Shown here piece by piece: positions 4,854 to 23,228 of a DNA stretch of 32,000 nt. Within the stretch, counting starts at the first letter, position 1. Each line of letters starts with the position of its first letter. The position numbers and the translations under genes were made by a program. Origin of the DNA: Candidatus Paracaedimonas acanthamoebae. GTDB taxonomy: Bacteria; Pseudomonadota; Alphaproteobacteria; Caedimonadales; Caedimonadaceae. Below the pieces are notes generated by a model, which was not told the DNA's origin, searched no databases, and saw only the letters and a list, made by a program, of their open reading frames with translations. The stretch is taken from assembly GCA_000743035.1 (NCBI GenBank), contig CP008939.1, positions 1 to 32,000 of the forward strand, read 5' to 3'.

Positions 4854-4964
4854 TTAAGAAATTAAAATATTCTCATATTTTTATATTGAATAAGAAATAT
4901 GAGAATATCTTTTATCTGTATTAAATTATTTTCCTGTTACATAGGAAGTGTTTCGAGAATTAAA

Positions 4965-5747
4965 ATGAAATTATCAAATATTCTTGTTATAATCTCAACA
5001 TTGAGCTTTTTACTAATCTCTTCTCTTAAAGCAAGTGATCTTCGAGAAGAGGCCACTAATAATAAAAGCCCCTCTTCTATAACTTTAACTCACCTTCCAG
5101 ATGAGATAATAACTTATATCTTTAGCTATTTGGATTCAAAAACTCTCTTTGCTTGCGAAGCAGTGTCCCAAAAATTTACTGAAATAGTTCAGCACATATG
5201 GGAGAGAGAAGATAAAGAGATAGTTATAAAAAATCCTACTCCTGAAAAAATAGTAAATTTTATAAAAGATGGGCGACCTTTCAGGTCTCTTGACATCTCT
5301 AAAATTAAAGCAGAAAAATCTCCACTTACTTTAAAAGACTTGAGCCTGAAAGCATCCTTAAGAAGTCTGAATATTTCCGGGCATCTCTTATATCCTTTAC
5401 AGCTTGAGTTGTTATCAAACTTTACAACTCTTACAAGCCTTAAGATGAACAGAGTGATTATATTTGATACAGGAGATACTTTAAAAGGGCTATCTAATTT
5501 AACTAATCTTATTGTTTTAGAAGCAAACACCAATCATTTGGCTCCAAAGGCTTTACACACCATAACAACATTATCTTCGCTTAAGAGCCTAGATATTTCT
5601 AATAATTTAGCATTAGATCATGAATCGCTTGATCCTTTAAAATCCTTAAAGAGTCTTCAGCAGCTTAATTTAAAAAATACGAATATAAAACAAGATACTA
5701 TTCAAGAGCTGCGTCTCCATAATGCGACACTAACTATACAACAATAA
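4965..5747 (+). CDS. Secreted F-box / leucine-rich-repeat protein
   Basis: Start placed at MKLSNILVIISTLSFLLISSLKA (signal peptide). F-box LPDEIITYIFSYLDSKTLFACEAVSQKFTEIV. Several LRR units (LRSLNISGH, LTSLKMN, LTNLIVLEAN, LKSLDISNN, LQQLNLKNT). Confidence 0.8.
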   Translation: MKLSNILVIISTLSFLLISSLKASDLREEATNNKSPSSITLTHLPDEIITYIFSYLDSKTLFACEAVSQKFTEIVQHIWEREDKEIVIKNPTPEKIVNFIKDGRPFRSLDISKIKAEKSPLTLKDLSLKASLRSLNISGHLLYPLQLELLSNFTTLTSLKMNRVIIFDTGDTLKGLSNLTNLIVLEANTNHLAPKALHTITTLSSLKSLDISNNLALDHESLDPLKSLKSLQQLNLKNTNIKQDTIQELRLHNATLTIQQ

Positions 5748-5756
5748 GCCCTGCTA

Positions 5757-6654
5757 TTGACCTTGCCCCGTATAATTCCTCCAGTTTTTAGTTAGTATAA
5801 GAGATCAACTGGAGGATGCTATTATGAAGAAGAGCTATGGAGCGGAGCAGATAATCGGGTTGTTACGTCAGAGTGATGTCTTGTTGTCCGAAGGCAAGAG
5901 TATTGCTGAGATTTTTCGTCACTTAGGGATCTCGGATGCGACTTATTACAAATGGCGTAAGGTTTATGGGGGCTTGAAGGTTGATCAAGCAAGAAGGCTT
6001 AAGGAGCTTGAGCGGGAGAATGCAAGTCTCAAGAGAGCTGTTGCTGATCTAACATTAGATAAGTTGATATTGAAAGAAGCTGCAGAGGGAAAATTTTAAG
6101 CACCGAACGACAACGGCAATGTGCTATTAAGATCCAGCAAAAGTTAAGGATCTCCCAAAGGCGTGTTTGTGAGGTTTTAAGCATTCACCGTTCGGTGCTG
6201 AGATATTGCTTTAGACAAGAAGATAATGAGGAAGCGTTAAGAACAGCTATTATTAGGTTAGCACCTCGCTATGGAAGGTATGGCTATCGTCGGATTCATG
6301 CTTTGCTTAAAATAGAAGGCTGGCATGTAAACCATAAAAGAGTTGAACGTTTATGGCGAGAAGAAGGCCTTAAGGTACCCCAGAGACAGCCTAAGAGGGG
6401 AAGACTCTATTTTAATGATGGTTCTTGTTTAAGGTTAAGGCCGTGCTGGCCAAATCATGTTTGGAGTTATGATTTTGTAGCTGATCGTCTTGCTAATGGC
6501 AAGAAGATCCGCCTTCTCACAGTTATAGATGAATATACAAGAAAATGTTTATCCATCAAGGTTGGGTATCACTTAACATCAAATGATATTATAGACACAT
6601 TAAGTGATTTATTTATTCAAGGAGGCATCCCTGAGTATATTCGTTCGGACAACG
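5757..6654 (+). mobile_element. IS3-family element, 3'-truncated
   Basis: Putative left end starts tgaccttgcc. orfA, then orfB in the -1 frame. orfB breaks right after the ...IRSDN motif of the DDE domain. Confidence 0.6.
5824..6099 (+). CDS. IS3-family transposase OrfA (HTH + leucine zipper)
   Basis: GISDATYYKWRKVYGGLKVDQARRLKELERENASLKRAVADLTLDKLILKEA is the typical IS3 OrfA pattern. Confidence 0.75.
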   Translation: MKKSYGAEQIIGLLRQSDVLLSEGKSIAEIFRHLGISDATYYKWRKVYGGLKVDQARRLKELERENASLKRAVADLTLDKLILKEAAEGKF

Positions 6655-6665
6655 TCCTATATTAG
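6093..6665 (+). pseudogene. IS3-family transposase OrfB, truncated within the DDE domain
   Basis: The -1 frame relative to orfA reads ILSTERQRQCAIKIQQKLRISQRRVCEVLSIHRSVLRY..., then YGYRRIHALLK, WSYDF, IRSDN, followed by unrelated sequence and a stop. Confidence 0.65.
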
Positions 6666-6999: not shown

Positions 7000-7845
7000 G
7001 GCTGTGTTGCAACTTTGAGCTAAGGGAGTAAACTTAAAGGTCAAATAACTTTGGGTGCTACCTATGAAACATCAAGATTTCCGTTATCGACAATTCTTAC
7101 CTACCATTATCCTACAATGCATGCGCTGGTATTTAAGGTACCCCTTAAGCTACCGTAACCTGGAAGAGATGATGGAAGAAAGAGGCGTGGAGGTTGACCA
7201 TACAACTCTTTATCGCTGGGTGCAAAAGTATGCCCCTGAACTTGAGAAAAGAATCAGATGGCATGCGCGTACCTTCTGCAGATCTTGGCATCTTGATGAG
7301 ACCTACCTGAGGGTAAAAGGGAAATGGAAGTATCTTTATCGGGCTATTGATAAGAATGGAGGGACTATAGACTTCATGCTCTCAAGCAAACGTAATTATC
7401 AAGCAGCATATAACTTTCTTAAGAATGCTCTGAAGAAAACAAGAGTTAATGAGAGGCCTTTAAAGATTACAACAGACAAACACCCTTGTTATGCTCCAGC
7501 CATTCAAGCCTTAAAGAAAGAAAAGCTTCTTAAACCTCATGTTGAGCACCGTCAGACGAGGTATCTCAACAATGTTATAGAATCAGATCACAGAAGAATA
7601 AAAAGAAGGACAAGACCTATGATGGAATTTAAGAGTTTAGTCTCTGCTAAGAGAGTCATAAAAGGCATAGAAGCAATGAATATGATCGTTAAAAAGCAAT
7701 CATGTTTCTTTGCAGGCAGCATCCATGATCAGATCTATTTTATTCATCGCATCTTTAATATCTACACCCGAACTATGTCCAAAATTTGAAAAAGCTTTTA
7801 TTTCCTAGCTTAATTGTAACCTTAGCTCAAAGTTGCAACACAGCC
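7000..7845 (+). mobile_element. IS6-family insertion sequence (type 2)
   Basis: 26-bp perfect IRs ggctgtgttgcaactttgagctaagg at 7000-7025 and, inverted, at 7820-7845. Single transposase ORF. The flanking 8-mers gttacagc and gataaaag differ, so there is no target-site duplication. Confidence 0.8.
7064..7789 (+). CDS. IS6-family (IS26-like) DDE transposase
   Basis: MKHQDFRYRQFLPTIILQCMRWYLRYPLSYRNLEEMMEERGVEVDHTTLYRWVQKYAPE, WHLDETYLRVKGKWKYLYRAID, TDKHPCY, NNVIESDHRRIKRR. The track ORF starts at an upstream GTG (7055). Confidence 0.85.
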   Translation: MKHQDFRYRQFLPTIILQCMRWYLRYPLSYRNLEEMMEERGVEVDHTTLYRWVQKYAPELEKRIRWHARTFCRSWHLDETYLRVKGKWKYLYRAIDKNGGTIDFMLSSKRNYQAAYNFLKNALKKTRVNERPLKITTDKHPCYAPAIQALKKEKLLKPHVEHRQTRYLNNVIESDHRRIKRRTRPMMEFKSLVSAKRVIKGIEAMNMIVKKQSCFFAGSIHDQIYFIHRIFNIYTRTMSKI

Positions 7846-8525
7846 GATAAAAGGCCTTTCTCTGTGAGCACCTTTTCAACAGATTCCATGCCCTTCTCAG
7901 CCGTCCAGCGAAAAGCTCTCTGTTGATCCTGAGCTGCCCCATCTCTTGACTCGCCAACAATCACTAAACCCTTAGCGCTTATCCCGTAAGACCAACTCTT
8001 GCGTCCGCCATTTAAGGTGCCTAAGGATTCCATGCCCTTCTCAACCGTCCAGCGAAAGGCTCGCCGTTGATGCTGCGTTGCCCCATCCTTTGCTTCGCCA
8101 ACAATCACTGAACCATCAGAACTTACCCCCAAAGCAATGCTCTCACTTCCTCCATTTAAGAAGCCAAGGTCTGTAAAAGAGAAAGTACAATGCTCCCTCA
8201 CAAGGGCCTTATAATTTCTTTCTTGAGCAGAATTTTCTTTTAAAATGATTTGCGCTCTCTTGGCATATTCCCTCCAAAGTTGGTTATCGTCCATTAACCT
8301 TTGCCATCTTAAACTTGTGCTTGTGACAGAAGGGATATCTTTTTGGTTGAGAAACGAAAAGATGACCACGTAGAGTTCATCAGGTAGATCTTCTATGTGC
8401 TGGGCGCTATGAATGGGTGGGGAATCTTCATTCTCTGTACCAGACGGAAAGGCTAAAAGGCTTGTGGTCAACACAGTTAAAAGAAATATAAATCTTAAAG
8501 ATTTCTTAAAGCAAAATTTCAACAT
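7827..8525 (-). CDS. Secreted F-box / HAF-repeat protein, 3' end replaced by the IS6 inverted repeat
   Basis: Signal peptide. F-box LPDELYVVIFSFLNQKDIPSVTSTSLRWQRL. Two HAF-type repeats (GSVIVGEAKDGATQHQRRAFRWTVEKGMESLGTLNGG; GLVIVGESRDGAAQDQQRAFRWTAEKGMES). The last codons and the stop lie inside the IR at 7820-7845. Confidence 0.7.
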   Translation of the reverse strand: MLKFCFKKSLRFIFLLTVLTTSLLAFPSGTENEDSPPIHSAQHIEDLPDELYVVIFSFLNQKDIPSVTSTSLRWQRLMDDNQLWREYAKRAQIILKENSAQERNYKALVREHCTFSFTDLGFLNGGSESIALGVSSDGSVIVGEAKDGATQHQRRAFRWTVEKGMESLGTLNGGRKSWSYGISAKGLVIVGESRDGAAQDQQRAFRWTAEKGMESVEKVLTEKGLLSAVLQL

Positions 8526-8600: not shown

Positions 8601-8797
8601 GCCAATTAAAACTAAATAATAGTAATATCCAGCATGATCCGGGAAAGAACACTCTCAAGTTCGACTTAAGAAGAGAAGAAAGCCTAATAATCCTGACTTT
8701 CCAAAAGCCTTAGCGGCTAAGTAACTTTATCAAGAAAAGAACTTCCCTATTTAAGAAATCTGTCAAAGATTAGACGGCCCTGATACTGTGTTAAGGA

Positions 8798-9775
8798 TCA
8801 AGGATTAATTTTAAGAATTTCAGGGTTAAAAACTGTTTTATATTTCAGCACCCCGAAGCATATATGGAGAAGCTTTCTCATAATAGCGCCTATAATCACC
8901 ATAGTATGTTTACCTTTTTTCTCTAATTTTTGGACAAAGGGTTGAAGAAGCGGATTATGATTTTTAGCTGCGATAGCTGGAAAATAAAGAGCTTTCCTTA
9001 AAGAAGAAGAACCTATTTTAGAAAGACAAGATCTTCCTTTAACAGAAGTCCCTGATGTTCTATGAGATGGCGTAAGACCAGCATATGCAGCTAATTGCCT
9101 GGCACTTTCTAAAGAAGAAAGTTCAGGGATTTCTGCAAGAATAGCTATGGCTGTTATTTTGCCAATGCCTGGAATGCTTTGAAGGTTCCTACAATCCTGG
9201 TTTAAGCTCTCTTTTGAAGAGACCACTTGGTCTATAGCAACATTAACGACGTTAATTTGCTTCTCTATATGCTTGATGAGGTTTTGATAAACTTTCTCAA
9301 CACTTTTTGGAAGGCAGTCTTTGGTTTCTAAGAAGTTTCCAACTTGAGTATGTTGTTCCTTCAAGTTTTGCAAGCATCGATAAAGAGATCTTAATTCTTT
9401 TAACATGGGCTCTTTAGGCTTATAGGCTCTTAACTCATTCTTGCTCGCATACTCTGCAATCAGGTGAGCATCAACCTCATCTGTTTTATGGCGACTAAGC
9501 TTGCTTCTGGCAAAGGCTTTAATACAAGCAGGATTAACAATATGAACTTGATGTCCTTGTTCATAGAGATAATCTGCAAGCTTCTCTCCATAGCTTCCTG
9601 TGGCTTCCATACAGGCCTTAACTTGTTCAATACCTTGTGCTTGCAGCCACTTTGTTAGACCTATGAAGCCTTTAATGTTATTAGAGACCTTGTATTTTTT
9701 ATAAGACGTATGGAGGAGAAGAGCGATAGAAAGGTCTTTCTTAGAAACATCTATCCCTAATATAGCCTCATTCAT
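8798..9775 (-). CDS. IS110-family DEDD transposase/recombinase
   Basis: GIDVSKK..., MEATGSY, HKTDEVDA (RuvC-like DEDD). C-terminal LQSIPGIGKITAIAILAEI... YAGLTPSHRTSGTS domain. Confidence 0.9.
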   Translation of the reverse strand: MNEAILGIDVSKKDLSIALLLHTSYKKYKVSNNIKGFIGLTKWLQAQGIEQVKACMEATGSYGEKLADYLYEQGHQVHIVNPACIKAFARSKLSRHKTDEVDAHLIAEYASKNELRAYKPKEPMLKELRSLYRCLQNLKEQHTQVGNFLETKDCLPKSVEKVYQNLIKHIEKQINVVNVAIDQVVSSKESLNQDCRNLQSIPGIGKITAIAILAEIPELSSLESARQLAAYAGLTPSHRTSGTSVKGRSCLSKIGSSSLRKALYFPAIAAKNHNPLLQPFVQKLEKKGKHTMVIIGAIMRKLLHICFGVLKYKTVFNPEILKINP

Positions 9776-10095: not shown

Positions 10096-10924
10096 GGCCC
10101 TGTTGCAAAAATATTATTTGAGCAGATTTAGGTCTTTTTGCAGTTTTCAATTAAACAGTATAGACACTGAATTGTCGGTTAACGAGACGGATTTCTCCCT
10201 TGAGTCCTTGGCGATATTTCCAAAGATCCATCTGTCCCTTTTTAAACATCCTCATCACTTCAAACCCTTTAATCGTTGCATAAGCTGTTTTCAAAGATTT
10301 AAACCCTAGAGTTGGTTTAATCAGTCGTTTGAGTTTACCATGATCAGCTTCAATAAGGTTATTGAGATACTTAATCTGTCGATGCTCAAGGTCTTGAGGA
10401 CAAAGTCCTTCCTTCTTTAATTCTTTGATCGCTACAGCATAAGTAGGTGCCTTATCTGTATTAATTTTACTTGGTTTTTCCCATTCCTTAAACTTTCTTA
10501 AAGCCTTTGAAAGAAACCGTTTGGCAGCACTGATATTTCTTGTCGATGAAAGATAAAAGTCTATAGTACGCCCTCGCTTATCAAGAGCTCGATAAAGGTA
10601 AGCCCATTTACCCTTAACTTTTACATAAGTTTCATCAACTCTCCAGCTATAGCCAAGCCCTGGTTTCCAATACCACCTGAGCCTTTTCTCAATCTCTGGA
10701 GCATAAGTGATTACCCATCTATTAAGAGTTGTATGATCAACCGTAATGCCTCTTTCTTCCATCATTTCTTCAAGGTCCCGATAGCTGATCCCGTATTTAC
10801 AATACCACCTTACGCATCCAAGAATAATATCCCCTTGAAAATGACGCCACTTAAAATCATTCATCCAATAGTCCTCTAATTTTTAGAAACTCTGAACGAA
10901 GACAAAACTTTTTGCAACAGGGCC
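10096..10924 (-). mobile_element. IS6-family insertion sequence (type 1, IS26-like IRs)
   Basis: IRs ggccctgttgcaaaaa (10096-) and tttttgcaacagggcc (-10924), compare the IS26 IR GGCACTGTTGCAAA. The flanking 8-mers aaaataac and aaagtatt differ, so there is no target-site duplication. Confidence 0.85.
10151..10864 (-). CDS. IS6-family (IS26-like) DDE transposase
   Basis: MNDFKWRHFQGDIILGCVRWYCKYGISYRDLEEMMEERGITVDHTTLNRWV..., WRVDETYVKVKGKWAYLYRALD, TDKAPTY, NNLIEADHGKLKR. Confidence 0.9.
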   Translation of the reverse strand: MNDFKWRHFQGDIILGCVRWYCKYGISYRDLEEMMEERGITVDHTTLNRWVITYAPEIEKRLRWYWKPGLGYSWRVDETYVKVKGKWAYLYRALDKRGRTIDFYLSSTRNISAAKRFLSKALRKFKEWEKPSKINTDKAPTYAVAIKELKKEGLCPQDLEHRQIKYLNNLIEADHGKLKRLIKPTLGFKSLKTAYATIKGFEVMRMFKKGQMDLWKYRQGLKGEIRLVNRQFSVYTV

Positions 10925-13900
10925 AAAGTATTTACCTTGTGTTTACGAACGGTCTTTTAGAACCCGGTGTGTCTCGCTTTATCATTAAGAATTATGCTTT
11001 AACTCAGTCTCTTCTTTCTCCTGAAAAGATTCTTACACCTTTTTCACCCCAAAAGGTTGAACGCACAGATCAAGGAATTGAGGTGACCACCAATCCTTGT
11101 AAATGGGATTATCAGTTGATCAGCAAGCCCATCCCCTTGACGTTAGCATCTGCTCTTGAGCTAAGCTTTGAAGCAGACCTCAAAGAAGGAGGGTTTGCTG
11201 TAAAGTTTCTCTCGCAAGATAAGAAGAAATTCCTAGGCGCTAAGTACTATCAAAAACCTGGTCTTGTTAAAGATACGCTCAAACTTCCTTTTGGGGTTTC
11301 TGATAAAAGTATTTACCTTGTGTTGACAAACAGCCTCCTAGAACCCGGTGTGTCTCGCTTTATCATTAAGAATTATGCTTTAACTCAGTCGCCTCTTTCT
11401 CCTGAAAAGATCCTCACACCTTTTTCTCCTCAAAAGGTTGAGCGCACAGACAAGGGAATTGAGGTTATTACCAATCCTGGCAAATTGGATTATCAGTTGA
11501 TCACCAAGCCGATTCCCCTGACGCTGGCCTCTGCTCTTGAGGTGGCTTTTGAAGTCGATCTTAAGGAAGGAGGCTTTGCTGTAAGGTTTCTCTCCCATGA
11601 TAAGAAGAAATTTTTAGCCTCTAAGTACTATCAAAAACCCGCCCTTGTTAAGGATACGCTCAAGCTTCCCTTTGGAACTGATGATGAAAGTATCTACCTT
11701 GTGTTTACAAATAATTTGCTAGAGCCAGGGGTGTCTCGCTTTATCATTAAAGATTATACTTTAATTCAACCAAGTGCTCCACAATCTTCACTTCAAAGTG
11801 AGTCACCATCGCCCTCTTTACCTTTACAAAGGAGAGTGAGAAAGGAACTTCCTTCTCAGCCCGGTTTTATCTATAAGTTTCCACCACAACCTCTTTATAA
11901 TCCTTGGCCTGGTGCTTCTCAAGCAGATGTCACCTTTGAAGTCGAAAAGCTTGAGGATAAGAGTCTTTATTTTATTGGACGTGAAAACAACAACATTATC
12001 TTAGATCATACCAGTCTGCCAGACCAGCTTCAGACTGTGCGCAAAGGTCCCTTCCAGTTAGAACGACACAATGATCTTATTTTTTGGTCTTACCTTGGGC
12101 TTGATCATTCTAGAATGGCTTTTGCCGTGAAAGAAAATGGCGATATCATATTTATGCCTCTGAGAACAGAGACCGGGTACCAAGCGCATAAAGTTTGGAG
12201 CTTTAGAACGACAGGAACCCTTATTAACCAAGCAGATTCTTGCTTTTATTTTTCTTACTTCCAGGCTTCACAAATTCATAATTTTCGTTTGCTGAAGTGT
12301 TTTGGCATGGAGTCGCAGCAATCTTACTTTTTCAATAAGGGAGTCCTGCATTTAGGGGATGACACGGGGATAGCGTCTCTAAGCGTGTATCAAGAATATT
12401 TGCCACTCATTGATGAAAAGGCTGAACCTCATTACCAAAAAGATGTGATTGATGATCATGGGGTTACACTTGCTGAGAAAGGCCTTAAGATTGGACACAT
12501 GACCCATCGTGTTCATCGCTTTACTGAGGCCCAAAAGCTAGAGCTTGATGAAGCGCCTCTTGAGGTTTATCAACAACTCAATGTTGAAGGCCCGATTACC
12601 GGTACCACGCCTTCCATGATCAATCATGGCAGCATGAGTGCGCGTGCGATGACATCAAGCCTGAGTGTTCAAGATTGGATCAACAAGGGTGAAGTTCGCC
12701 TGTCACTACCCTCTGAGATTCGAGCTCAAAATGAGATGGACAACAGCGGTGTTATCCGCAGTATAAGTAGCATCACACTGAGCTCCCGCAAGAAGCCTAA
12801 ATCTTTGGGCATGGTGATTTCCGATGATCAAATTAAAGCGATGATCGACGATATTCTCACGCTTGAGGAGCAAGAGCTTGTCTTTGGAAATGCCCGCTTT
12901 TTGTCGAAAAAGCGCAGGCTTGTTGTAGATATGGTCCATCATACAGACCACTATTTAAACACGATCACCCATCATTATGTCCAAGATAGAGGGTTGCAAC
13001 GATTAATAAGGAAAACCGAGACAGGCTATGTCTTTCAGAAGCGGACTTCTGAAAGGTCTCAAAAAGTCATTGAAAAAGGCGTTATAGACATCCCTGAAGA
13101 GATCGAGGGCTTGGATCGAGCCTTTCATGATCGCCAGCGCCTTTTATCAAAATTGAGAGAAGGGATCAAAGATCGCATACGTGAGCTGATGCGTTTTTAT
13201 AGCGGCATTCAAGACCTCAGCCGAATGTTATCCTCTGTGCTTTCTGGCATGGGGCTGGATAGCGAGGAAGTGAGCGACATTACGAATGACCCTAGCCTCC
13301 AATCTCTTCTGTTAGCTTTGGGCTTGCCAGAGAAGGATGCTTTTGGGCTGGTTGAAACTCTAGATGATCCTCAACGGCTACTTTATCATTCACTTACGGC
13401 CATGGCTCAAGGATTCCAGACCACGGCAGTTCAGTGGATCATGAAGAATCCTGATGCTTTCCTTAATATTGTTTGTGGAGGGGTATCCATTGTAAATTTT
13501 TTGGATAAAATAATACCCTATTCTCCAACAAAGTATCCTTTAGCACAACTTGGATTGCAAGGCGCCAATGCCTTTTGTGGAATAAGAGGAGCACAAAAAA
13601 GCCTCCCTAAGATCCAAGCATATTTCAGCAAACAGCATGATAGTAAGACTGGTGGGATAAGCTCTTCAAGCAGTAGTACTAAGGAAGCACTCCATGGATC
13701 TTCTCAAACACCAAAAAATGTTGCTTTGCATGAAAAACAGAAAGTAGAATTGAGGAAAGAAATGCAAGCGCCGCATGTTGAGGATGCAAGTTTAAAAAAG
13801 CTTATAGAGTGGAATTATAAGACAACTGCGGATGTAGGAAGCGGAAGCACTGCTGATGCAGTTAGATACGAAATAAAAACGGGTTTACCAGTTAAAGGCA

Positions 13901-14037
13901 AGTTTCATACTCAAAAAGCTCAAGAGACAGTGAGCAAGCTTGAAAAATGGATTAGCCAAAACCCAAATGCACATACTAAAGATAAGGCCGCTGCTGAAAA
14001 TGTGTTGAGAGATCTTAGAGATGCTTTAGGAGAATAA
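10925..14037 (+). CDS. Large polymorphic-toxin-like protein, 5'-truncated by the IS at 10096-10924
   Basis: The open frame runs out of the IS IR, and the track start (TTG at 10912) lies inside the IR. Architecture: about 2.2 x 127-aa repeats, a ~470-aa unique region, and a conserved handle (13120-13640) that recurs at 14462 and 15687. A unique ~130-aa C-terminus follows the sequence ...LPKIQAYFSKQH. Confidence 0.7.
10927..11775 (+). repeat. In-frame tandem repeat, 381-bp period (127 aa), about 2.2 copies
   Basis: agtatttaccttgtg...gaacccggtgtgtctcgctttatcattaa recurs at 10927, 11308 and 11689. The protein unit is SIYLV(F/L)TN.LLEPGVSRFIIK.Y.L.Q... Confidence 0.9.
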
Positions 14038-14041
14038 ATGG

Positions 14042-14464
14042 ATGAAATTTAGTGAGCAAAATTATAAAGATTATATACTAAGTGAACTCCCTAATTTTAG
14101 ATCTAGGATAGAAAATTATCATAGTAATTTTAAAGATCAACCGTGGAGAAATCCGACTCTATGTGGAGAGTTAATGGAGCTTGTAGACTTTTATGAAGAT
14201 TTAAAAGAAAACGAGAGAGAAAATATAGAAGAAATTAAAAAAGTTTTCATAATAGCTGAAGAATTAGCTTATCAAGGTAATGAGGAAATAAGAGGCGCTT
14301 TGGAAGTTTGCTTTTTTGAAAGTATTATTAACAGTTTAGGAACGGATGAAAAAGCATTAAGTGAATTTTTTAAGCTGCTTGGTCCTGCGTCAATTGAACT
14401 TTGTAAAAAGAATGATGCCTTTTGGGGGACAAGAACCCCAGGTTTGTATGGGAGTGATCACTGA
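14042..14464 (+). CDS. Candidate immunity protein for the toxin C-terminus
   Basis: 140-aa acidic helical ORF starting 4 nt after the toxin stop. The call rests on position and architecture. The NEEIRGALEVCFFESIINSL segment is reminiscent of helical immunity families (from memory only). Confidence 0.55.
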   Translation: MKFSEQNYKDYILSELPNFRSRIENYHSNFKDQPWRNPTLCGELMELVDFYEDLKENERENIEEIKKVFIIAEELAYQGNEEIRGALEVCFFESIINSLGTDEKALSEFFKLLGPASIELCKKNDAFWGTRTPGLYGSDH

Positions 14465-15288
14465 GCAACATTACCACTGACCCTAGTCTTCAATCTCTCC
14501 TATTAGCTTTAGGCTTGCCAGAGAAGGATGCGCTTGGGTTGGTTGAAACTCTGGATGATCCTCAAAAGCTGCTCTATCATTCTCTTACGGCCATGGCTCA
14601 AGGATTCCAGACCACGGCAGTTTAATGGATCATAAAGAATCCTGATACTTTCCTTAATATTGTTTGTGGAGGAGTATCCGTTGTAAATTTTTTGGATAAA
14701 ATAATACCCTTTTCTCCAACAAAGCATCCTTACGCACAACTTGGATTGCAAGGGGCCAATGCGCTTTGTGGGATAAGAGGAGCGCAGAAAAGCCTTCCTA
14801 AGATCCAAGCTTATTTTAGTAAACAACATACTGGAAAGCCTACAGTAGCAAGTTCAGTTGTAGAACCAGGACCTTCAAGTTCAACGTCTTCAGCACCTAA
14901 AGGCCAAACCTTTTATGTACCTCCCCGATCTCAATCAAGAATCAATATTGTAGAAGGGATAGGTAAACCCAATAAACGTGTAGAAGGAGAGACTAAACCC
15001 GGGGTTGAGAGTATATGGGGAAAACATATGAATCCTGAGCGCACTAATAAGTCTCAGTTTACAATTTCTAACGAAAGAGTAAGATCTATTTTAAGCGATA
15101 AAAAGACTATTGAGACGCCTATTACTAAAATGGGTCATGATAAAACATATGTTAGAGAAGTGGATGTCGGTAATATAATTGGTAAACTACCTGCAAAAGA
15201 TGGAAGTAAACCCACTTCTATTGTGACAATATTAACCGATGCAGAAGGAAATCTAGTTAATGTTTTTCCAGGACCATTAACATATTAG
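14462..15288 (+). pseudogene. Orphan toxin cassette 1: handle fragment plus an unrelated C-terminal domain, with an in-frame stop
   Basis: 14462-14830 is homologous to 13271-13640 (SNITTDPSLQSLLLALGLPEKDALGLVETLDDPQKLLYHSLTAMAQGFQTTAV*WIIKNPD...). TAA at 14623-14625 replaces CAG. After ...IQAYFSKQH the sequence is unrelated to the first C-terminus. The longest ORF is 14692-15288 from a TTG. Confidence 0.7.
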
Positions 15289-15291
15289 AGA

Positions 15292-15642
15292 ATGAATATG
15301 CATATTGATATAAAATTGCGGTACCGAAATGATATTATTATACCTGAAGAGCATAAATTAATAGAGCATATAACGCGAGAGAATAATGCATCTTATCTTG
15401 TCAAAGGCTATGATAATCCAGAGTTTCCTTATCTAGGAGAAGTCGAATATAATGACCCAAGCGTATTCGATGCTAACGATATGGATGCCATTATTGAAGA
15501 ATTATTGTGTATACGTAAGGAAGTTATAAATCCTGGTGATCAAGCGCATATTGATGATATTATACGGTTAGCCAAGAAATGTAAAGAAATCCCTGATACG
15601 GTGCTTACTTTTTCTGGGCATTATGAATCTATTGTTAAATAG
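15292..15642 (+). CDS. Candidate immunity protein for orphan cassette 1
   Basis: 116-aa acidic ORF starting 3 nt after the orphan C-terminus stop. The call is positional. Confidence 0.5.
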   Translation: MNMHIDIKLRYRNDIIIPEEHKLIEHITRENNASYLVKGYDNPEFPYLGEVEYNDPSVFDANDMDAIIEELLCIRKEVINPGDQAHIDDIIRLAKKCKEIPDTVLTFSGHYESIVK

Positions 15643-15686
15643 TCTACTTAAGATAAGAATTTCTTTATAGTTAAGGTTTAGATTGG

Positions 15687-16172
15687 GCATTTAATGATCG
15701 TCAGCGCCTTTTATCAAAACTGAGAGAAGGGATTTAAGATCGCATTCGGGCGTTGATGCGGTTTTATGAGGCTGCTGGCGGTGTTCAAGACCTCAGTAGG
15801 ATGTTGGTGTCTGTGCTTTCTGGCATGGCACTAGATCATGAGGAAGTGAAAGATATTACCACGGATCCTAGTCTTCAATCTCTCTTATTAGCTTTAGGCT
15901 TGACGGAGAAGGATGAACTTAGGTTGGTTGATTCAGACGACTTTCAATTAAAGCCTCTTTATAGTGCAATACTAGCTCATTCACAAAGGCTAGGACTCTC
16001 TGCTCTTGATTGGGTTAAAAATCATCCTATGGAGTTTTTTGATGGCTTTTGTACTCTTGCAAATATAGCAAGTTTTGTCCCTGTTCCAGCCATAGCCATA
16101 CCAGGAAATATTGGCAACCGTATTTGTTTAGTTGGCAAGGCTGCAATATATCTCCCTAAGTTCCAACAATAG
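15687..16172 (+). pseudogene. Orphan cassette 2: diverged handle copy with an in-frame stop and no distinct toxin domain
   Basis: AFNDRQRLLSKLREGI*DRIRALMRFYEAAGGVQDLSRMLVSVLSGMALDHEEVKDITTDPSLQSLLLALGL... parallels 13120 onward. TAA at 15735-15737 replaces AAA. It ends ...AAIYLPKFQQ*, at the position equivalent to ...SLPKIQAYF. Confidence 0.65.
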
Positions 16173-16195
16173 AGGGGAAAAGAGCCCCTCTATTG
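16167..16195. terminator. Bidirectional hairpin terminator between convergent genes
   Basis: caatagagggg aaaagag cccctctattg gives an 11-bp perfect stem with a 7-nt loop, between the orphan cassette (+) and the kinase gene (-). Confidence 0.6.
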
Positions 16196-16218: not shown

Positions 16219-19200
16219 TTATGGCTTAAACTTCGGCGTAAAATACATAGAACGACTATCATCACGGGTATTTAAGTCTGGCTCCTCATAGGTCGCTGAC
16301 GGATGATTATCATTATCATAAGGCTTTAAGTTCGGCACAGTATACCTTGTATCCTCTGTATTATCGTTATAAGCCTTAACATAAGGGGCTTCAACACTCT
16401 CATTACTAGAGCTTAGCTCACTATCACTGTCTTCATACTCCTTCTGTAAGTCGTTATAAAGGGAAGGAAACTCTTCTCCATATCTTGATGGTGAAGGGAG
16501 CTTATCCACATACTCTGAAGGGACCTCTTGTTTATAAGCTTGCTGCGAGGGGAGTTTGTCCTCATAAGCATATGAAGTCGTTGCAGAGCTGCTGGCAGGA
16601 GCAATATTGGTATTGACGGCTTCCTTTTTAGCGGGTTGTGTTTCCTTTTCTGACAGTGCCTTCATGAAATCTACGAATAGCTCTTTAGGGGAAGACTTTG
16701 GCTTCAATTTGAGAAGCTCTTCTTGAGCTTTGACTGTTGTCCATCTCTTCCTTGGTTTAGATTCAAGCAACCCTTTGAGGACAGGAAGGATCGTTAGACT
16801 TTTAAAATTCTTTTCAACCTTCTCGTAAGCGTCCTCAAAATATTCTTCATAATAATCTGAATCACGCTTGTTCAGCATCTCTATGACATTCTTCTCAAAA
16901 CCAAAGGGATATTCATTATTGGTAATCTCTAACAAAGTGATCCCTGCCGCAAAAGCATCAGCGGCTTTTCCAGAGAAATAGGGAGCCATTTCTGTGGCTT
17001 CAAATTGGTGGCCTTTACGATCCATTGCATAACGGCAATGGGCCATACGATCAGGGGAGAAGTAGGCAAAATCACCAAGCCCACCTTTGAGGTTGTCTTT
17101 TTGTAAAGCACAGCCAAAATCACTGACATAAACTGATCCATCGGTATGCACAAGAACATTGGTTGGTTTGACGTCAAGGTGAGAGATGCCATCATCATGC
17201 ATGTTTTTAAGCCCTGTTAAGAGAGAAAGAGCAAAGTGTGTTAACAGATGATCTTTGAGTTTATTATTGGGCAGAAGCGCAAGCTTATCTTGGAAGGCCT
17301 GTCCATTGCCGAGAGCCGCTAAGGGGGTGACTTGCAATAAGAGTTCTTGCTTTGTCATATCTTGACCACGAATGGTGGTTGATCCAAAAGTTGCATTCAA
17401 AAGTTGTTTTATGTCTCTTCTATTGTCAGAGGTTGGCTTGAAATGTAAGTATTCTAACAAAGGTAAAACACCTTCTTTTTGACCTAAGCTTTCTTGTAGT
17501 TTTCCTTCACGACGAGAAGCTTTTACATTTTCTGTTCCGACAACCACTTTCATCGCATCATATTGTCTTGTCCCTCTTAGCCTTGCAGGGAAGACGCGTC
17601 CAAAATTTCCTGCCCCTAAAGTTACTTTCTTTTCATCTTCCTCATCATCTTCAAAATCAATGTTAAGGCCGGCGAGAACTTTAAGTTCTTTTGCTTCACG
17701 CCTGTCTACGTCAGGAAGAAGCACATATTCATGGCCATGCATTGCCCCTTTGATAATGATCCTTCCAGCCTCAACGCCTTCTCCCTTGGCTGTGAAAGCA
17801 TCAGCAGCCACAGCGGGAGTAGTTGGGGGAAGTTCACCCAACTCTATATCCTCATTGCCGAAAGCTCTTTTCTTGTTGTTATGACGATATTTAAGGCCAA
17901 GAATAACGGCCAAGGTCGTGCCACCTGCAAGTAATACAGTTCCACCAACAGCTCCCCCAACTGCAGCTCCTATGACTGTAGAATCGTTTGAAGATGAAGA
18001 AGGTGAGCCACTATTTCCCCCTGGTGTCGGAGAAGAAGTGGGAGCTGCTGCTGCGATAATTTCTGGTCCTAAAATGGCATAATAATTGACCGGACTCCCA
18101 CTGGAACTTTGAGAGACACGCAAAACAATAGCTGCTGTTGAGTTAGGAAGGTAAAGTTCTGCAAATTTCTCAACTGTACCTTCGGTTAAATTACTACGAA
18201 GTGAGGTAATTGAATTAAGAGTAACTTTATGTGTTGTATTAGGTTCTTGGAGAGTCGGGTTCCATTGATAAGAGTGCGTAAGTTGTTGTATGGTTGTTGA
18301 GTTTAATTGATGATTAATAATTTTTTCGACCATAGGACCATCAATAACATTAGTTGTAACCGTATATAATCCTGCATACTTCTCCACAAAATAATATGTA
18401 AGGCGAGCATAACTTGCTGATGGCAGATAGCTGGAGCATGCAAGCGGGTCGAGTCCAAGTCTTTGGAGACAGTTGATCATATTACTTGGAATCAGGTTAT
18501 TATCTTCAGCAAATTGTTGTATTGATCTGCTATTTTGTCCACTTGGATTATCGACATAGCCTGAATAAAAGGAGCTTAAAAAATTAGCAAACGATCTATT
18601 ATCTCTTTCAGACGCTGTTGAGGGTTTAATTGTATTTAATGGTGTTGCAGAGATTTTGCTGGAATTAACTCTATTAGCAACTGTTTGATTTGTAATAAGG
18701 CGTTGCCATAAAAGAGAAGAAGGACCATTTGAAGGTCTTAAAACAGCATTTCCTATACCGAAAGTATTATCATTATTCATCACTATGAGAAGTAAAAATT
18801 CGCTATTTGGCAATTGATCTAAATAAGAAAAACTTAAAGATCCTTGTTGGGCAGATGTATCAATTATGCTTATATTGGGTTGTATATTTCTTACATCATA
18901 GATGTGATAAGAAGTATCTTGATAAGATGTTCCATTAATTTGAGTTCTATTATGGCCAATGCCTGGGCCGTAAAGATTATAAAACTCTAAGGATAGATCA
19001 CTTAAAGGCAGTGTACCTATTCTAAAACTGTTAATCTCAGAGTAATACCCCGCAGAGTTTAAGTTAGGCATTAAACCTTGCAATGGATCACCTAATGCAA
19101 AACGTCTTATAGGATTTGTTAATGCAAACTGTAAATATCCATCAAAATTATTAAAGTTTAAAATGGAATCAATTCCATCTTCATAACCGCAGCAATTTAA

Positions 19201-20160
19201 AAGAGCAAAGGCACTCTCGCACTCTTTATAAGATCCATTGCATGCATCCTCTAATAATTGAGGACGTTGTGCTGCAACAGGCGTAAGGATATTCGCGCTA
19301 CCCAGAAGAAGCAAAAAAGTAATTCCTGTAGCTGCTCGGGACCAATTTATATTTCTTGGTAAATCAATATTAACCCCTAGCCTTCTGAGTACTTTTATAG
19401 AATCTTCCTGAAGGCGTCCCCCATCCAATTTTCTGTAAAGGCGTTTAACAGCCATATTTAAAAGCGGTAAATTTTCCTGGCGACATTCATAAGAGGACAT
19501 TTCTTTTAAGCATTTAGATAAAAGAAGACCTTGCCGAAATAAATTAGGCTCCTCAAATTGGCTTTCTTCATCAGAAAAGTATTGAGAAGAAGCACAATCT
19601 TTTTTAATTAAAGATGGTAGAGTTCCTTTATTAAGCGTCGAATAGAATTCAATATATGATTCAATAAATTGAGGAAGGTTTTTATCGTTAACTTCAATTT
19701 CCTGTATTTTTTTGAAATTTGATAAAATAAGTTCATGATGCGAGTTGAGGTGCTTCTTGAATTCATCAGCAGTTAAAGGATTTGAGAGTTTTGTATTAAG
19801 ATACAAAAAAAAGTCATTGAGGTTATCATAGCTAAGCTCAGCCACATGATAAAGCACTTTACTTCCTTGTTGTTGCCATCCTGGAGAGTTATGACTTTTC
19901 ATAATGGTATGCCAAGATATATTGCTTGGTTCTTGTATTTTCGTCGATGACAAATGGGTCTTTGATAAGAGAGAGGAGAAGGCCGTTGCTAATTTATTCC
20001 AAACGCTACTGATTAATGAGGGGGGTGAATCTGCTTCTTGCCGAATTGCTGAATTATTTGAGCGTGATTTATATGAATCTTCTTGAATCTCAGTCGCACC
20101 AAGCTGATGAGAAAATATATTTATAATAAATAGTATACTTAATGTTTTGAAACTAAGCAT
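16219..20160 (-). CDS. Receptor-like membrane protein with a eukaryote-type Ser/Thr kinase domain
   Basis: Signal peptide MLSFKTLSILFIINIFSHQLGA. ~700-aa ectodomain. Ser/Pro linker, then a Gly/Ala-rich TM (VIGAAVGGAVGGTVLLAGGTTLAVILGL, about 17893-17975) followed by KYRHNNKKR. Kinase motifs: GAGNFGRV, AMKV (Lys about aa 871), HLDVKPTNVLV (Asp aa 996), DFG (aa 1014), DAFAAGITLLE. Tyr-rich acidic tail. Confidence 0.85.
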   Translation of the reverse strand: MLSFKTLSILFIINIFSHQLGATEIQEDSYKSRSNNSAIRQEADSPPSLISSVWNKLATAFSSLLSKTHLSSTKIQEPSNISWHTIMKSHNSPGWQQQGSKVLYHVAELSYDNLNDFFLYLNTKLSNPLTADEFKKHLNSHHELILSNFKKIQEIEVNDKNLPQFIESYIEFYSTLNKGTLPSLIKKDCASSQYFSDEESQFEEPNLFRQGLLLSKCLKEMSSYECRQENLPLLNMAVKRLYRKLDGGRLQEDSIKVLRRLGVNIDLPRNINWSRAATGITFLLLLGSANILTPVAAQRPQLLEDACNGSYKECESAFALLNCCGYEDGIDSILNFNNFDGYLQFALTNPIRRFALGDPLQGLMPNLNSAGYYSEINSFRIGTLPLSDLSLEFYNLYGPGIGHNRTQINGTSYQDTSYHIYDVRNIQPNISIIDTSAQQGSLSFSYLDQLPNSEFLLLIVMNNDNTFGIGNAVLRPSNGPSSLLWQRLITNQTVANRVNSSKISATPLNTIKPSTASERDNRSFANFLSSFYSGYVDNPSGQNSRSIQQFAEDNNLIPSNMINCLQRLGLDPLACSSYLPSASYARLTYYFVEKYAGLYTVTTNVIDGPMVEKIINHQLNSTTIQQLTHSYQWNPTLQEPNTTHKVTLNSITSLRSNLTEGTVEKFAELYLPNSTAAIVLRVSQSSSGSPVNYYAILGPEIIAAAAPTSSPTPGGNSGSPSSSSNDSTVIGAAVGGAVGGTVLLAGGTTLAVILGLKYRHNNKKRAFGNEDIELGELPPTTPAVAADAFTAKGEGVEAGRIIIKGAMHGHEYVLLPDVDRREAKELKVLAGLNIDFEDDEEDEKKVTLGAGNFGRVFPARLRGTRQYDAMKVVVGTENVKASRREGKLQESLGQKEGVLPLLEYLHFKPTSDNRRDIKQLLNATFGSTTIRGQDMTKQELLLQVTPLAALGNGQAFQDKLALLPNNKLKDHLLTHFALSLLTGLKNMHDDGISHLDVKPTNVLVHTDGSVYVSDFGCALQKDNLKGGLGDFAYFSPDRMAHCRYAMDRKGHQFEATEMAPYFSGKAADAFAAGITLLEITNNEYPFGFEKNVIEMLNKRDSDYYEEYFEDAYEKVEKNFKSLTILPVLKGLLESKPRKRWTTVKAQEELLKLKPKSSPKELFVDFMKALSEKETQPAKKEAVNTNIAPASSSATTSYAYEDKLPSQQAYKQEVPSEYVDKLPSPSRYGEEFPSLYNDLQKEYEDSDSELSSSNESVEAPYVKAYNDNTEDTRYTVPNLKPYDNDNHPSATYEEPDLNTRDDSRSMYFTPKFKP

Positions 20161-20363: not shown

Positions 20364-21062
20364 TCAAAAGGTGTGTTTAATATAAACCGTAGCTTTATTA
20401 ACATGTGATAGAGATTTTATAGCCACACTTCCAATATTATTCTTATCCATTATATTATATGATAGTTTTTTATATCTAGCTTGAGAGAATTCCCCCCCTA
20501 CTGATATGTTTTTGTTAACAGGGGTTTCAACTCCAAATCCAAAACTACCACCATTTAAATACTTAGATGTGCTTCCTTTCCCCAATAAAGGCAATATTTC
20601 TGTTTCAGATTTCCACTTTGATCTTAAAATTCCAAGCTTTATATAAGGGAGCCATTCTTTAAAGAGGTATCCTAAACGTAAAGAGGCACCATAGCTATGA
20701 GTTGTTTTAAAAGTAGATCCTACTGGTTCTCCATAATTTATTGCTGTCCAAGCTTTTCCTTTTGCACGATCAAAAGAGCCTTCTAGCTCTATTCCACTAT
20801 AAAGCTTATTATCAAAAAGATGCGCATATAAAATGCCAGCACCAATAGCGCCACCCTTGATAGAAATATTCGAGGAGTCTTTTATGCTGTTTAAAGCTGC
20901 TATTCTAGAAATGATAGCACGATTTGTTTTAGCTTCCCCACTCATATACCCTCCTCGCACTAAAACAGAAAAGCTATTTGAAGAACTTTTAATCCCCCCA
21001 GCTTTAGCATAAAATGGAAAAGTCAATACTATAAGACTTAGCAATTTAGATGTTTTAATCAT
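20364..21062 (-). CDS. Outer-membrane beta-barrel protein (OmpA-beta-barrel / Omp25-like class)
   Basis: Start placed at the ATG with an aaggaa RBS (the track start at 21077 is a TTG). Signal peptide MIKTSKLLSLIVLTFPFYAKA. Alternating amphipathic strands, Gly/aromatic-rich, C-terminal ...YIKHTF. Confidence 0.65.
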   Translation of the reverse strand: MIKTSKLLSLIVLTFPFYAKAGGIKSSSNSFSVLVRGGYMSGEAKTNRAIISRIAALNSIKDSSNISIKGGAIGAGILYAHLFDNKLYSGIELEGSFDRAKGKAWTAINYGEPVGSTFKTTHSYGASLRLGYLFKEWLPYIKLGILRSKWKSETEILPLLGKGSTSKYLNGGSFGFGVETPVNKNISVGGEFSQARYKKLSYNIMDKNNIGSVAIKSLSHVNKATVYIKHTF

Positions 21063-21087
21063 GTTCAGTTCCTTCAAAATTTACTTC

Positions 21088-22374
21088 TTATGAGTTAATA
21101 TTATTAATGTAAGTTGCTATATCGTTTAAATTATTTAATCCAGTTGGAGGTATATGTGGAAAGGCCCCCTGGGTACGAAATGCTCCTGCTATATTATTAG
21201 TAATTATATTTATCAGATTTTGGACCCCTTGCTGCATAGTTTGTAAATCATTTTGAGCTTGATTACGTTCTGCTATGATTTGCTCGGCCGTGAGAAGAAT
21301 ATTAGAGCCTACTGCAGGATTAACAACTGTCCTTAATTGCGTCATCGCCTCAGGCAAGGAAGCTGCTCCATTATTGATCTCTGTCTTTGCTTGAGTGATA
21401 ACATCTTGCGCCTGTTGTAAATCATTTTGAGCTTGATTACGTTCTGCTATGATTTGCTCGGTAGTGAGAAGAATATTAGAGCCTACTGCAGGATTAACAA
21501 CTGTCCTTAATTGTGTTATTGCTGCAGGCAAGGAAGCTGCTCCATTATTGATCTCTGTCTTTGCTTGAGTGATAACATCTTGCGCCTGTTGTAAATCATT
21601 TTGAGCTTGTTGTAGATCATTCTGAGCTTGATCACGGTCTGCTACAATTTGTTGAGTGGCCAGAAGAATATTAGAGCCTACTGCAGGATTAACAACTGTC
21701 CTTAATTGCGTCATCGCCTCAGGCAAGGAAGCTGCTCCATTATTAATCTCTGTCTTAGCTTGGGTAATAACATCTTGCGCCTGTTGTAAGTGTTGTCTGG
21801 CTTGGTTGCGATCTGCTACCATTAGCTGGGCACCATCCCTTAAATTAATACCAGGAATAATATTCTGGACTACTTGAATAGCTGGAATTAAATCAGGAGC
21901 GTTATTGCCATAAACTTCTATTCTTGCCTGATTAATAATATTTAGTAATGTTTGTAATCTTTGTTGTAAAGCCTGAGCACGCGTATGTAAATCGCCGTTT
22001 CCACCAAGATCTGCTTCAACAGTAGCCAATCCTAACGCAATGGTAAGAGAATTCGAATTAATAGTATTTTTAATACTTGTGCCTTTTGTCGTGAGAGTTG
22101 CTCCAGTGATATTTCCCATAACAACCAAAAGGCCATTTACATCCTGTCGCAGCTTCACATCTTCCCCATTGAGATCAATATCTTCTATTAATTTTAGAAG
22201 TTCATCTATAGGACAATTATATTTAATGGCAAGATTAGCTAATCTTGTTTTCCCAGATGAAGAAAATGCAAGTAACTTTTCCCGTTGCTCTTCATTTAGA
22301 GAAGCTTTTAAAGGATAGGATAAAGACATTATCCCTACTAATGATATGAGTAGTTTTATAGATAATTTAAACAT
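21088..22374 (-). CDS. Secreted coiled-coil protein with 58/65-aa tandem repeats
   Basis: Start placed at MFKLSIKLLISLVGIMSLSYPLKA. Three repeats of QAQDVITQAKTEINNGAASLP.A(M/I)TQLRTVVNPAVGSNILL...Q.I.A.R.QAQNDLQ. Confidence 0.7.
   Translation of the reverse strand: MFKLSIKLLISLVGIMSLSYPLKASLNEEQREKLLAFSSSGKTRLANLAIKYNCPIDELLKLIEDIDLNGEDVKLRQDVNGLLVVMGNITGATLTTKGTSIKNTINSNSLTIALGLATVEADLGGNGDLHTRAQALQQRLQTLLNIINQARIEVYGNNAPDLIPAIQVVQNIIPGINLRDGAQLMVADRNQARQHLQQAQDVITQAKTEINNGAASLPEAMTQLRTVVNPAVGSNILLATQQIVADRDQAQNDLQQAQNDLQQAQDVITQAKTEINNGAASLPAAITQLRTVVNPAVGSNILLTTEQIIAERNQAQNDLQQAQDVITQAKTEINNGAASLPEAMTQLRTVVNPAVGSNILLTAEQIIAERNQAQNDLQTMQQGVQNLINIITNNIAGAFRTQGAFPHIPPTGLNNLNDIATYINNINS
21241..21830 (-). 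repeat. In-frame tandem repeat, 174-bp period (one unit 195 bp)
   Basis: attagagcctactgcaggattaacaactgtccttaattg recurs at 21301, 21475 and 21670. The extra 21 bp duplicates QNDLQQA. Confidence 0.85.
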
Positions 22375-23211: not shown

Positions 23212-23228
23212 TGATACTGTGTTAAGGA

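Follow-up and report, generated by a model that had tools for sequence, protein, structure and literature searches.

A probable polymorphic toxin locus with displaced C-terminal modules on an unannotated scaffold family in Candidatus Paracaedimonas acanthamoebae, now largely inactivated

We analysed a 32,000-nucleotide (nt) stretch of DNA from Candidatus Paracaedimonas acanthamoebae (contig CP008939.1, positions 1 to 32,000 of the forward strand; hereafter the window), which contains a locus of toxin-like genes on the plus strand. The main open reading frame (ORF) occupies 10912-14037 with 1041 codons, and its stop lies at 14035-14037 according to the ORF list. Its product begins with 2.3 copies of a 381-nt (127-aa) tandem repeat (10924..11768; direct repeats, 82-93% identity), followed in the translation by a Pro/Ser-rich linker (11769..11919) that leads from the repeats to a conserved scaffold. 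The scaffold consists of a beta-rich part (11920..13107) and a C-terminal conserved helical region (13108..13638), which ends at the junction motif KIQAYFSKQH and is called the handle here. Beyond the junction lies a basic putative toxin domain, C-terminus 1 (CT1; 13639..14037). Downstream of the main gene we found an acidic ORF, Imm1 (14042..14464), a second copy of the handle (14462..14829) with an orphan putative toxin domain, CT2 (14830..15288), a second acidic ORF, Imm2 (15292..15642), and a third, diverged handle fragment (15675..16172). The initial annotation of this DNA had described three linked elements of this kind, and the ORF list, a repeat finder and an ungapped comparison bear them out.

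In copy 2 of the handle, the segment 14462-14829 corresponds to 13271-13638 over 368 ungapped nt (122 codons) with 89.7% identity, and the identity between copies 1 and 2 drops to background (6-11 matches per 30 nt) no more than 30 nt outside either end. This homology begins on the TGA of the 140-aa Imm1 ORF, and copy 2 contains an in-frame TAA (14623-14625) where copy 1 reads CAG. Copy 3 is equivalent to 13108-13620 as a whole: 15675-15931 corresponds to 13108-13355 with 77% nt identity over 257 nt, protein homology extends to 16172, and positions 422-540 of a hidden Markov model (HMM) of the scaffold match it with an E value of 1.5e-21. The presence of this third copy had been recognised before, but its start is at 15675 (equivalent to 13108), 12 nt before the 15687/13120 proposed. 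It has an in-frame TAA as well (15735-15737, where copy 1 reads AAA), and it ends at 16172, exactly at the scaffold/toxin junction of the family, without a toxin and without an immunity module. The homology of these repeats is far beyond chance. Downstream of the main gene a single orphan cassette is complete (14462-15642), and the third copy (15675-16172) is a remnant of the handle alone; the initial annotation had counted two orphan C-terminus/immunity cassettes.

The handle copies differ mostly at synonymous sites. The ratio of nonsynonymous to synonymous substitution rates (dN/dS) between the handles of copies 1 and 2 is 0.13 (dS 0.35), and for copy 3 against copy 1 it is 0.10-0.27. Such values (dN/dS 0.1-0.3) indicate purifying selection on the handle copies, so each of them would once have been part of a working gene. 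The GC content of the CT/immunity cassettes is 0.32-0.39, compared with 0.42-0.45 in the scaffold. A scan for promoters and terminators returned counts at the expectation from shuffled sequence.

CT1 and the scaffold were characterised with residues 290-1041 of the main protein as the query of an exhaustive HMMER scan; 1200 hits came from the 1.84 billion representatives scanned (in the following, P numbers denote proteins and L numbers loci). Of the 150 best hits, more than 120 (cluster representatives) align with nothing but the final ~110 residues, which lie in CT1, with about 45-55% identity. In all, hundreds of proteins have a C-terminus about 50% identical to CT1, and nearly all CT1 matches end 0-5 residues from the C-terminus of the carrier protein. 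Carriers of CT1 include P0121 (RHS repeats), P0026 (YD shell) and P0032 (SpvB/TcdB_midN/FG-GAP/RHS). CT1 has an isoelectric point (pI) of 9.08, and a five-helix domain is predicted in its conserved ~105 aa, the model being confident (predicted local distance difference test, pLDDT, 91). R, T, H, K and D are among its invariant residues, within the motif GSGST..A.R.E..TG.PV.G..H.QK. No Pfam or NCBIfam family, no PDB sequence match and no Foldseek match in PDB turned up for CT1.

The neighbour of CT1 can be assigned to a family. Imm1 (140 aa, pI 4.66) has its ATG 4 nt past the stop of the main ORF and matches DUF7674 (PF24722) with 60.5 bits (cutoff 27; E 1.9e-16) over positions 2-111 of the 111-position profile. 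A DUF7674 gene stands directly after the CT1-type toxin in both loci that were retrieved (L007, 5757-6125; L008, 9428-9799), and the pairing is found on three unrelated carriers, namely the scaffold of the window, an Rhs protein and a TcdB/SpvB-Rhs protein. Since CT1-type toxins are followed by DUF7674 in L007, L008 and the window, the two genes are, by sequence, a conserved toxin/immunity-type pair. Imm1 is the predicted cognate immunity protein of CT1, by position and family, and DUF7674 can be annotated as a putative polymorphic-toxin immunity family; we found no mention of DUF7674 in the literature searched.

CT2 (152 aa, pI 9.62) is unrelated to CT1. Over ~115 residues it shares 36-41% identity with the C-termini of several toxin carriers, namely a Listeria welshimeri LXG protein, a Paenibacillus PT-TG protein and a “filamentous hemagglutinin”. 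Besides, it matches a 217-aa ORF of Burkholderia multivorans located between small genes and a ShlB/POTRA (CdiB-type) gene, a context which, judged by gene content, is that of an orphan CdiA-CT. Imm2, a 116-aa ORF with a pI of 4.81, starts 3 nt past the CT2 stop. Neither CT2 nor Imm2 has a Pfam or NCBIfam match, and Imm2 is predicted to provide immunity to CT2 from its position and charge alone.

The scaffold of the main protein (~570 aa) can be divided into a ~390-aa beta-rich domain and a ~190-aa helical region. Its alignment with homologues (P0003-P0022, E 1e-114 to 1e-28) begins at “ADVTFEV” (residue 337) and includes the motifs FEV, W.F+T.G, HN.G, Y.FN.G, DD.G, HHTDHYLNTIT.HY and TETGYvFQ+RT. 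In the family the junction reads “..KAq.FFSK+H”, or FFSK(K/R)H, and the aligned sequences are unrelated beyond it. Residues 850-868, within the handle, form the most hydrophobic segment of the whole protein in a hydropathy analysis, and we speculate that this segment might be membrane-active. An AlphaFold model of the scaffold, built from a 7-sequence alignment, has pLDDT above 80 for residues 1-385 and is all-beta there: short strands of 4 residues follow one another in runs, and there are two long hairpins, the second made up by the most conserved motif.

Scans of every segment gave no Pfam or NCBIfam match for the scaffold. Sequence searches of PDB, whether they used single sequences or profiles, had no significant hit, the scaffold included, and Foldseek against PDB returned nothing under E 0.5 for the scaffold or CT1 models; the likeness of the scaffold to left-handed beta-helix acyltransferases is insignificant. 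The motifs VENN, DPxGL, PAAR, YD and NPNL are all absent from the window protein. The Pfam/NCBIfam scans and the motif scan agree with the earlier reading that YD/Rhs, filamentous haemagglutinin (FHA), LXG, PAAR and VENN sequences are missing, and the two-partner secretion (TPS) domain is likewise absent. The proposal of a new family of delivery scaffold stands as far as Pfam, NCBIfam and PDB are concerned, but the scaffold is not unique to this genome, recurring in ~30 clusters, and its putative class, MafB-like toxins, is a known one.

About 30 representatives (clusters at 50% identity) match residues ~336-960 of the main protein (P0003-P0022 and others, best E 1e-114). These came out of the exhaustive HMMER scan: a word-indexed protein search with the full protein gave two matches only, both through the 127-aa repeat, and a word-indexed search with the scaffold profile gave P0153 only. 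In the GTDB representative genomes, a scan with the single protein found no match, and one with the scaffold profile, as one degenerate pattern, found three metagenome-assembled genomes (MAGs) only, i.e. an Alphaproteobacteria MAG, “Alphaproteobacteria bacterium MS502-96” and a Holosporaceae MAG. The family as a whole is drawn from Alphaproteobacteria/Holosporaceae MAGs and from metagenomes; in L002, for instance, an alphaproteobacterial GapR gene lies nearby. P0045, with 30 matched stretches, was rejected as a low-complexity artefact. Full-length members have 680-810 aa and hydrophobic, signal-peptide-like N-termini, e.g. MTFLKWIFLCLLSLGSTYA/YE, after which the scaffold follows directly.

The C-termini of these homologues differ widely. 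Colicin-E3-like PF09000 domains are present in P0005, P0011, P0022 and several metagenome members (CT1 and CT2 of the window have no PF09000 match), P0004 and P0010 have another C-terminus in common, and P0021 and P0008 carry still others. P0004 and P0008 share 56% identity in the scaffold and have unrelated C-termini, as do P0021 and P0022 with 39%; the C-termini of P0004 and P0010 are 44% identical at a scaffold identity of 33%, and those of P0005 and P0022 are 53% identical at only 25%. Judged by these pairs, C-termini vary past the FFSK junction independently of scaffold relatedness. An exchange of C-termini among homologues, as expected of polymorphic toxins in the initial annotation, is what the alignment displays, with unrelated sequences past FFSK(K/R)H and scaffold and C-terminal identity decoupled. 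A small ORF is located 0-11 nt after the toxin gene in L001, L002, L004, L012, L013 and L015.

Two of these neighbourhoods deserve description. In L004, two paralogous ORFs of ~100 aa (1421-1720 and 1954-2259) follow a scaffold toxin whose C-terminus is colicin-E3-like; the first is a DUF6980 protein and overlaps the toxin stop, and an IS30-like transposase gene comes after the pair. DUF6980 may be an immunity family for the colicin-E3-like scaffold toxin. In L012 (1-7242) and L013 (3937-4251), P0008 and P0004, which come from one sequencing run, adjoin F-type conjugation genes (TraH, TraG_N and the TraD coupling protein) together with AbiE toxin-antitoxin genes, and this placement suggests that the scaffold family travels on conjugative elements.

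The 5' end of the main gene in the window is not its own. An IS6-family insertion sequence (IS) on the minus strand (10096..10923) adjoins the toxin gene with its right inverted repeat and cuts it. The transposase (10151-10864, minus strand) matches Pfam DDE_Tnp_IS240 (E 2e-53), and its 16-nt terminal inverted repeats, GGCCCTGTTGCAAAAA, are found at 10096 and, in inverted orientation, up to 10923. The 1041-codon ORF takes its “TTG” start and the three codons after it from the terminal inverted repeat of the IS6 element, and the homology of the main gene to related proteins starts only at 10924. The gene is 5'-truncated at this point, its native start and any signal peptide being gone, and 1037 codons are still open. 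We found no 8-bp target duplication at the element; the two 8-bp flanks are unlike, as would be expected if the IS had mediated a rearrangement and had not simply inserted.

The 127-aa repeats occupy residues 5-286 of the main protein (381-nt period; repeat finder) and are 68-72% identical to repeats in P0001 (L001, 3012-5912) and P0002 (IM40_01065 of the amoeba symbiont Ca. Paracaedimonas acanthamoebae). Both proteins bear a signal peptide, and their C-termini are entirely unlike that of the window protein. The C-terminus of P0002 looked OTU-like by eye, an impression to which Pfam lent no support, and no claim is made of it. The contig of P0001 carries proteobacterial housekeeping genes, and an ORF with HEAT/LRV repeats begins 11 nt after P0001. 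No Pfam and no PDB match was found for the repeat module, which appears to be a second shuffled “carrier” domain. Since the scaffold directly follows the signal-peptide-like N-terminus in other family members, the window protein is, by this comparison, a fusion of the repeat module with the scaffold.

With these observations, we consider it very likely that the locus is a C-terminal-displacement polymorphic toxin locus on an unannotated scaffold family, now largely inactivated. The duplicated segments end at one junction and unrelated toxin-type sequences lie beyond it, which supports displaced CT/immunity modules; the polymorphic-toxin reading with a recombination handle, already put forward in the initial annotation, gains support from the shared toxin C-termini, the DUF7674 pairing and the swapping of C-termini. 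The general hallmarks of polymorphic toxins found here are a variable C-terminus, an adjacent downstream immunity-type gene (recognised by position and family only) and an orphan cassette. An N-terminal secretion or trafficking domain is missing from the window copy, where the IS6 element takes the place of the 5' end at 10924; the homologues do have signal-peptide-like starts.

The origin of the array can be sketched from anatomy, divergence and composition, after the model of Rhs, CdiA and MafB. As the homologues show, the ancestral type of protein had a signal-peptide-like N-terminus, the ~390-aa beta-rich domain, the ~190-aa helical region, the FFSK(K/R)H junction and a toxin domain of ~100-150 aa; in the window protein the extra 127-aa repeat module was fused upstream of the scaffold. 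Given the immunity gene immediately behind it, the toxin would have a conserved cellular target. New handle-CT-immunity cassettes, lower in GC than the scaffold, would have been acquired horizontally and recombined within the handle into the 3' end of the gene, so that the earlier C-terminus and its immunity gene were pushed downstream. In this order CT1/Imm1 would be the current pair, CT2/Imm2 an older one (handle 10% diverged) and the third remnant would follow with 23% divergence. Reactivation of CT2 would take a crossover within the ~200 nt from the TAA at 14623 to the junction.

As for its present state, the main gene has no 5' end and no signal peptide and is thus most likely a non-secreted pseudogene. 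A full-length toxin, as pictured before, does not agree with the loss of the 5' end to the IS6 element at 10924. Both orphans carry nonsense codons, and the locus is probably in decay and no longer armed. Its intact immunity ORFs may still give protection against the toxins of neighbours.

Several findings weigh against the interpretation as a displacement-type toxin locus. A secretion partner was not seen near any scaffold-family member examined, and in particular the window, L002, L012, L013 and L015 contain no ShlB/POTRA gene. Imm2 is without a detectable homologue and is unlike the genes downstream of CT2 homologues. The scaffold HMM found no orphan handle fragments in 15 other scaffold-family loci, so serial displacement is documented in this window only. 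Finally, only 7 sequences went into the scaffold model, in which the helical part has low confidence. An alternative is an adhesin or structural protein whose 3' end underwent simple segmental duplication, with unrelated small ORFs beside it. The tandem 127-aa repeats in the N-terminal part and the predicted beta-rich scaffold, weakly like beta-helix proteins and a putative adhesin, would fit this picture. But the duplicated segments stop exactly at the junction, the unrelated sequences past it have their homologues in the toxin C-termini of Rhs, LXG and CdiA proteins, DUF7674 accompanies CT1 in unrelated loci, and scaffold homologues bear colicin-E3-like domains. We regard this reading as extremely improbable, and for practical purposes it is refuted by the toxin homology of the C-termini, the DUF7674 pairing and the decoupling of scaffold and C-terminus. 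Pure genomic debris is a different matter, since it bears on the present state of the locus and not on its identity: the locus would have no present function, and its CT and immunity ORFs would merely have escaped mutation so far in an IS-ridden, degrading genome. The IS6 truncation without target-site duplication, the nonsense codons in both orphan handles, the lack of a cassette in orphan 3 and at least 7 IS copies or fragments within 32 kb are what one would expect from it, but Imm1, CT1, CT2 and Imm2 still have open frames of 116-152 codons, as has the main gene over 1037 codons. Moreover, orphan modules are normally silent, so that stops in them do not prove loss of the system, and immunity genes can be selected on their own; we judge a complete lack of function somewhat unlikely.

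A role against the host also has to be considered, in which the proteins would be secreted into the cytoplasm or vacuole of a protist, the C-termini would hit host RNA or proteins and the small ORFs would prevent self-intoxication before export. Genes for interaction with eukaryotes crowd the window (F-box genes at 4899-5747 and 7827-8525, leucine-rich repeats (LRR), and the eukaryote-like kinase at 16219-20160), a kinase with a long uncharacterised C-terminal extension follows the toxin/immunity pair of L002, and the 127-aa repeat module is common to P0002 of the amoeba symbiont Ca. Paracaedimonas. For comparable loci, host “addiction” has been proposed by Midha et al. (PMC8163844). However, host-directed effectors of endosymbionts are typically without immunity genes (Zhang et al., PMC3482391), whereas a small gene stands directly after the toxin gene in this locus and in six related ones; CT1 and CT2 occur also in Rhs, LXG and CdiA toxins of free-living bacteria, and orphan arrays are a signature of intraspecific arms races. 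A host-directed effector locus is unlikely in our view.

Among known systems, the MafB-type toxins have the closest architecture, and the resemblance is one of architecture only. MafB toxins of Neisseria combine a Sec signal peptide, the lineage-specific MafB-N domain, a variable C-terminus, MafI immunity and orphan cassettes (Zhang et al. 2012, PMC3482391). Similarly, the scaffold family has a signal-peptide-like start and then a lineage-restricted domain without any trafficking domain of type V, VI or VII secretion systems (T5SS, T6SS, T7SS), a polymorphic C-terminus past the junction and an immunity-type gene immediately downstream; in the window an orphan handle-CT-immunity module comes further downstream. 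The differences are that no similarity to MafB-N/DUF1020 was found (no Pfam hit), that the upstream genes in the loci examined are unrelated and include no MafA-like lipoprotein gene, and that the scaffold is larger (~570 aa), beta-rich and helical, with hosts of Alphaproteobacteria/Holosporaceae type and with a window copy that is repeat-extended and IS-truncated. This comparison places the scaffold family in a known class, that of putative Sec-exported toxins with lineage-specific N-terminal domains.

The C-terminal displacement logic with orphan CT/immunity arrays is shared with Rhs/YD and CdiA systems, CT1 being similar to Rhs C-termini and CT2 to those of CdiA-type and LXG proteins. Unlike Rhs proteins, the window has no RHS_repeat, TEN_YD-shell or PAAR hits and no YDxxG or DPxG[LW] motif, so that only CT1 is in common, and no T6SS genes lie nearby. 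Unlike CdiA and other two-partner (T5bSS) systems, it has no TPS domain (Haemagg_act), FHA repeats, VENN or NPNL, and no CdiB/TpsB gene nearby. The window protein has no hit to LXG (PF04740) either, and of the whole locus only CT2 is shared with an LXG/T7SS protein. By these domain assignments the locus is not a member of the CdiA, Rhs, LXG or MafB systems; it has the features of polymorphic toxins in general, save the lost N-terminal trafficking region.

Related systems have been described in symbionts of protists. “Ca. Bodocaedibacter vickermanii”, a Paracaedibacter-like endosymbiont of Bodo saltans, has three novel polymorphic toxin systems (I-III) with orphan modules (Midha et al. 2021, PMC8163844). 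They resemble our locus in that a protist endosymbiont carries a main toxin without a known delivery scaffold, immunity genes, orphans with a homology region before the toxin, and toxin domains from the general polymorphic-toxin pool; the C-termini there differ, being of the AHH, HNH and metallopeptidase types. This comparison is by the published description. The Bodo symbiont is not among the GTDB matches of the scaffold profile, a search with a single pattern in a collection which may not include that genome. The APD1/APD2 proteins of Amoebophilus asiaticus are likewise proteins of an amoeba symbiont with a conserved domain after the signal peptide and highly variable C-terminal effectors, but APD proteins carry lipoboxes and are accompanied by neither immunity genes nor orphan cassettes, and a parallel deployment against the host is assumed for them (Zhang et al. 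2012). Inter-bacterial toxins had been called unexpected in an intracellular bacterium when the locus was annotated; this leaves out of account the Bodo symbiont (PMC8163844) and Odyssella, an amoeba symbiont already singled out as an intracellular bacterium with polymorphic toxins and immunity genes (Zhang et al., PMC3482391), and with this precedent the ecological surprise is modest.

The surroundings of the locus are rich in mobile elements. An IS110-family element is present twice (8781-9775 and 23212-24206), with at least 300 nt at 100% identity and transposase ORFs of 325 aa in both copies, and further IS material consists of IS6-like genes (2205-2927, 7055-7789 and 10151-10864), an IS3 fragment (5824-6665) and a DDE_Tnp_1_3 gene (3314-3946), which indicates that the IS expansion is recent. 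The segments 2151-2415 and 2990-3254 form a 265-nt perfectly complementary inverted repeat around 574 nt, overlapping the IS6-like transposase ORF at 2205-2927, and represent either a palindromic IS rearrangement or an assembly artefact. On the minus strand, 16219-20160 encodes a protein of 1313 aa whose N-terminus is hydrophobic and whose central part contains a hydrophobic stretch rich in Gly and Ala; it also has a eukaryote-like Ser/Thr kinase domain (Pkinase, E 1e-21). The gene is convergent on the toxin locus, with its 3' end just beyond orphan 3, and in L002 a kinase-containing protein of at least 779 aa likewise comes after the toxin/immunity pair of the family. F-box proteins, one with LRR-like repeats, are encoded at 4899-5747 and 7827-8525, and an LRR protein at 443-1063. 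F-box and LRR proteins are typical eukaryote-mimicking effectors in amoeba symbionts. Taken with the kinase gene, the IS copies, the repeats shared with an amoeba symbiont and the alphaproteobacterial carriers of the scaffold, they make a protist-associated, probably alphaproteobacterial bacterium the likely bearer of the locus. A 439-aa ORF on the minus strand (21088-22407) contains three tandem repeats of ~174-195 nt (21241-21830, 86-89% identity) and adjoins an outer-membrane beta-barrel gene (20364-21077). The window has no plasmid match and no tRNA or Rfam feature.

A more far-reaching view, which we hold to be doubtful, is that the scaffold could be a self-contained toxin-delivery module, moving Sec-exported toxins over the outer membrane and/or into target cells without T5SS, T6SS or T7SS. 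Its beta-solenoid-like domain, the two conserved hairpins with ~25 residues per strand and the helical region that is most hydrophobic just before the toxin would serve this purpose, and the module would have spread among protist-associated Alphaproteobacteria, partly on conjugative elements. In the same view, CT1 and DUF7674 would represent a new toxin fold and a new immunity family, widespread in Rhs systems.

In conclusion, the window copy is probably dead, and its worth would lie in pointing to a family rather than in being a working system. An unannotated carrier family of ~30 clusters at 50% identity, none with a Pfam, NCBIfam or PDB match, can be added to the catalogue of polymorphic toxins, and DUF7674 receives a putative function as the immunity partner of a widespread five-helix toxin domain on Rhs proteins, one whose structure is uncharacterised. 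The locus would also be a further case of toxin/immunity arms-race genes in bacteria resembling protist symbionts.

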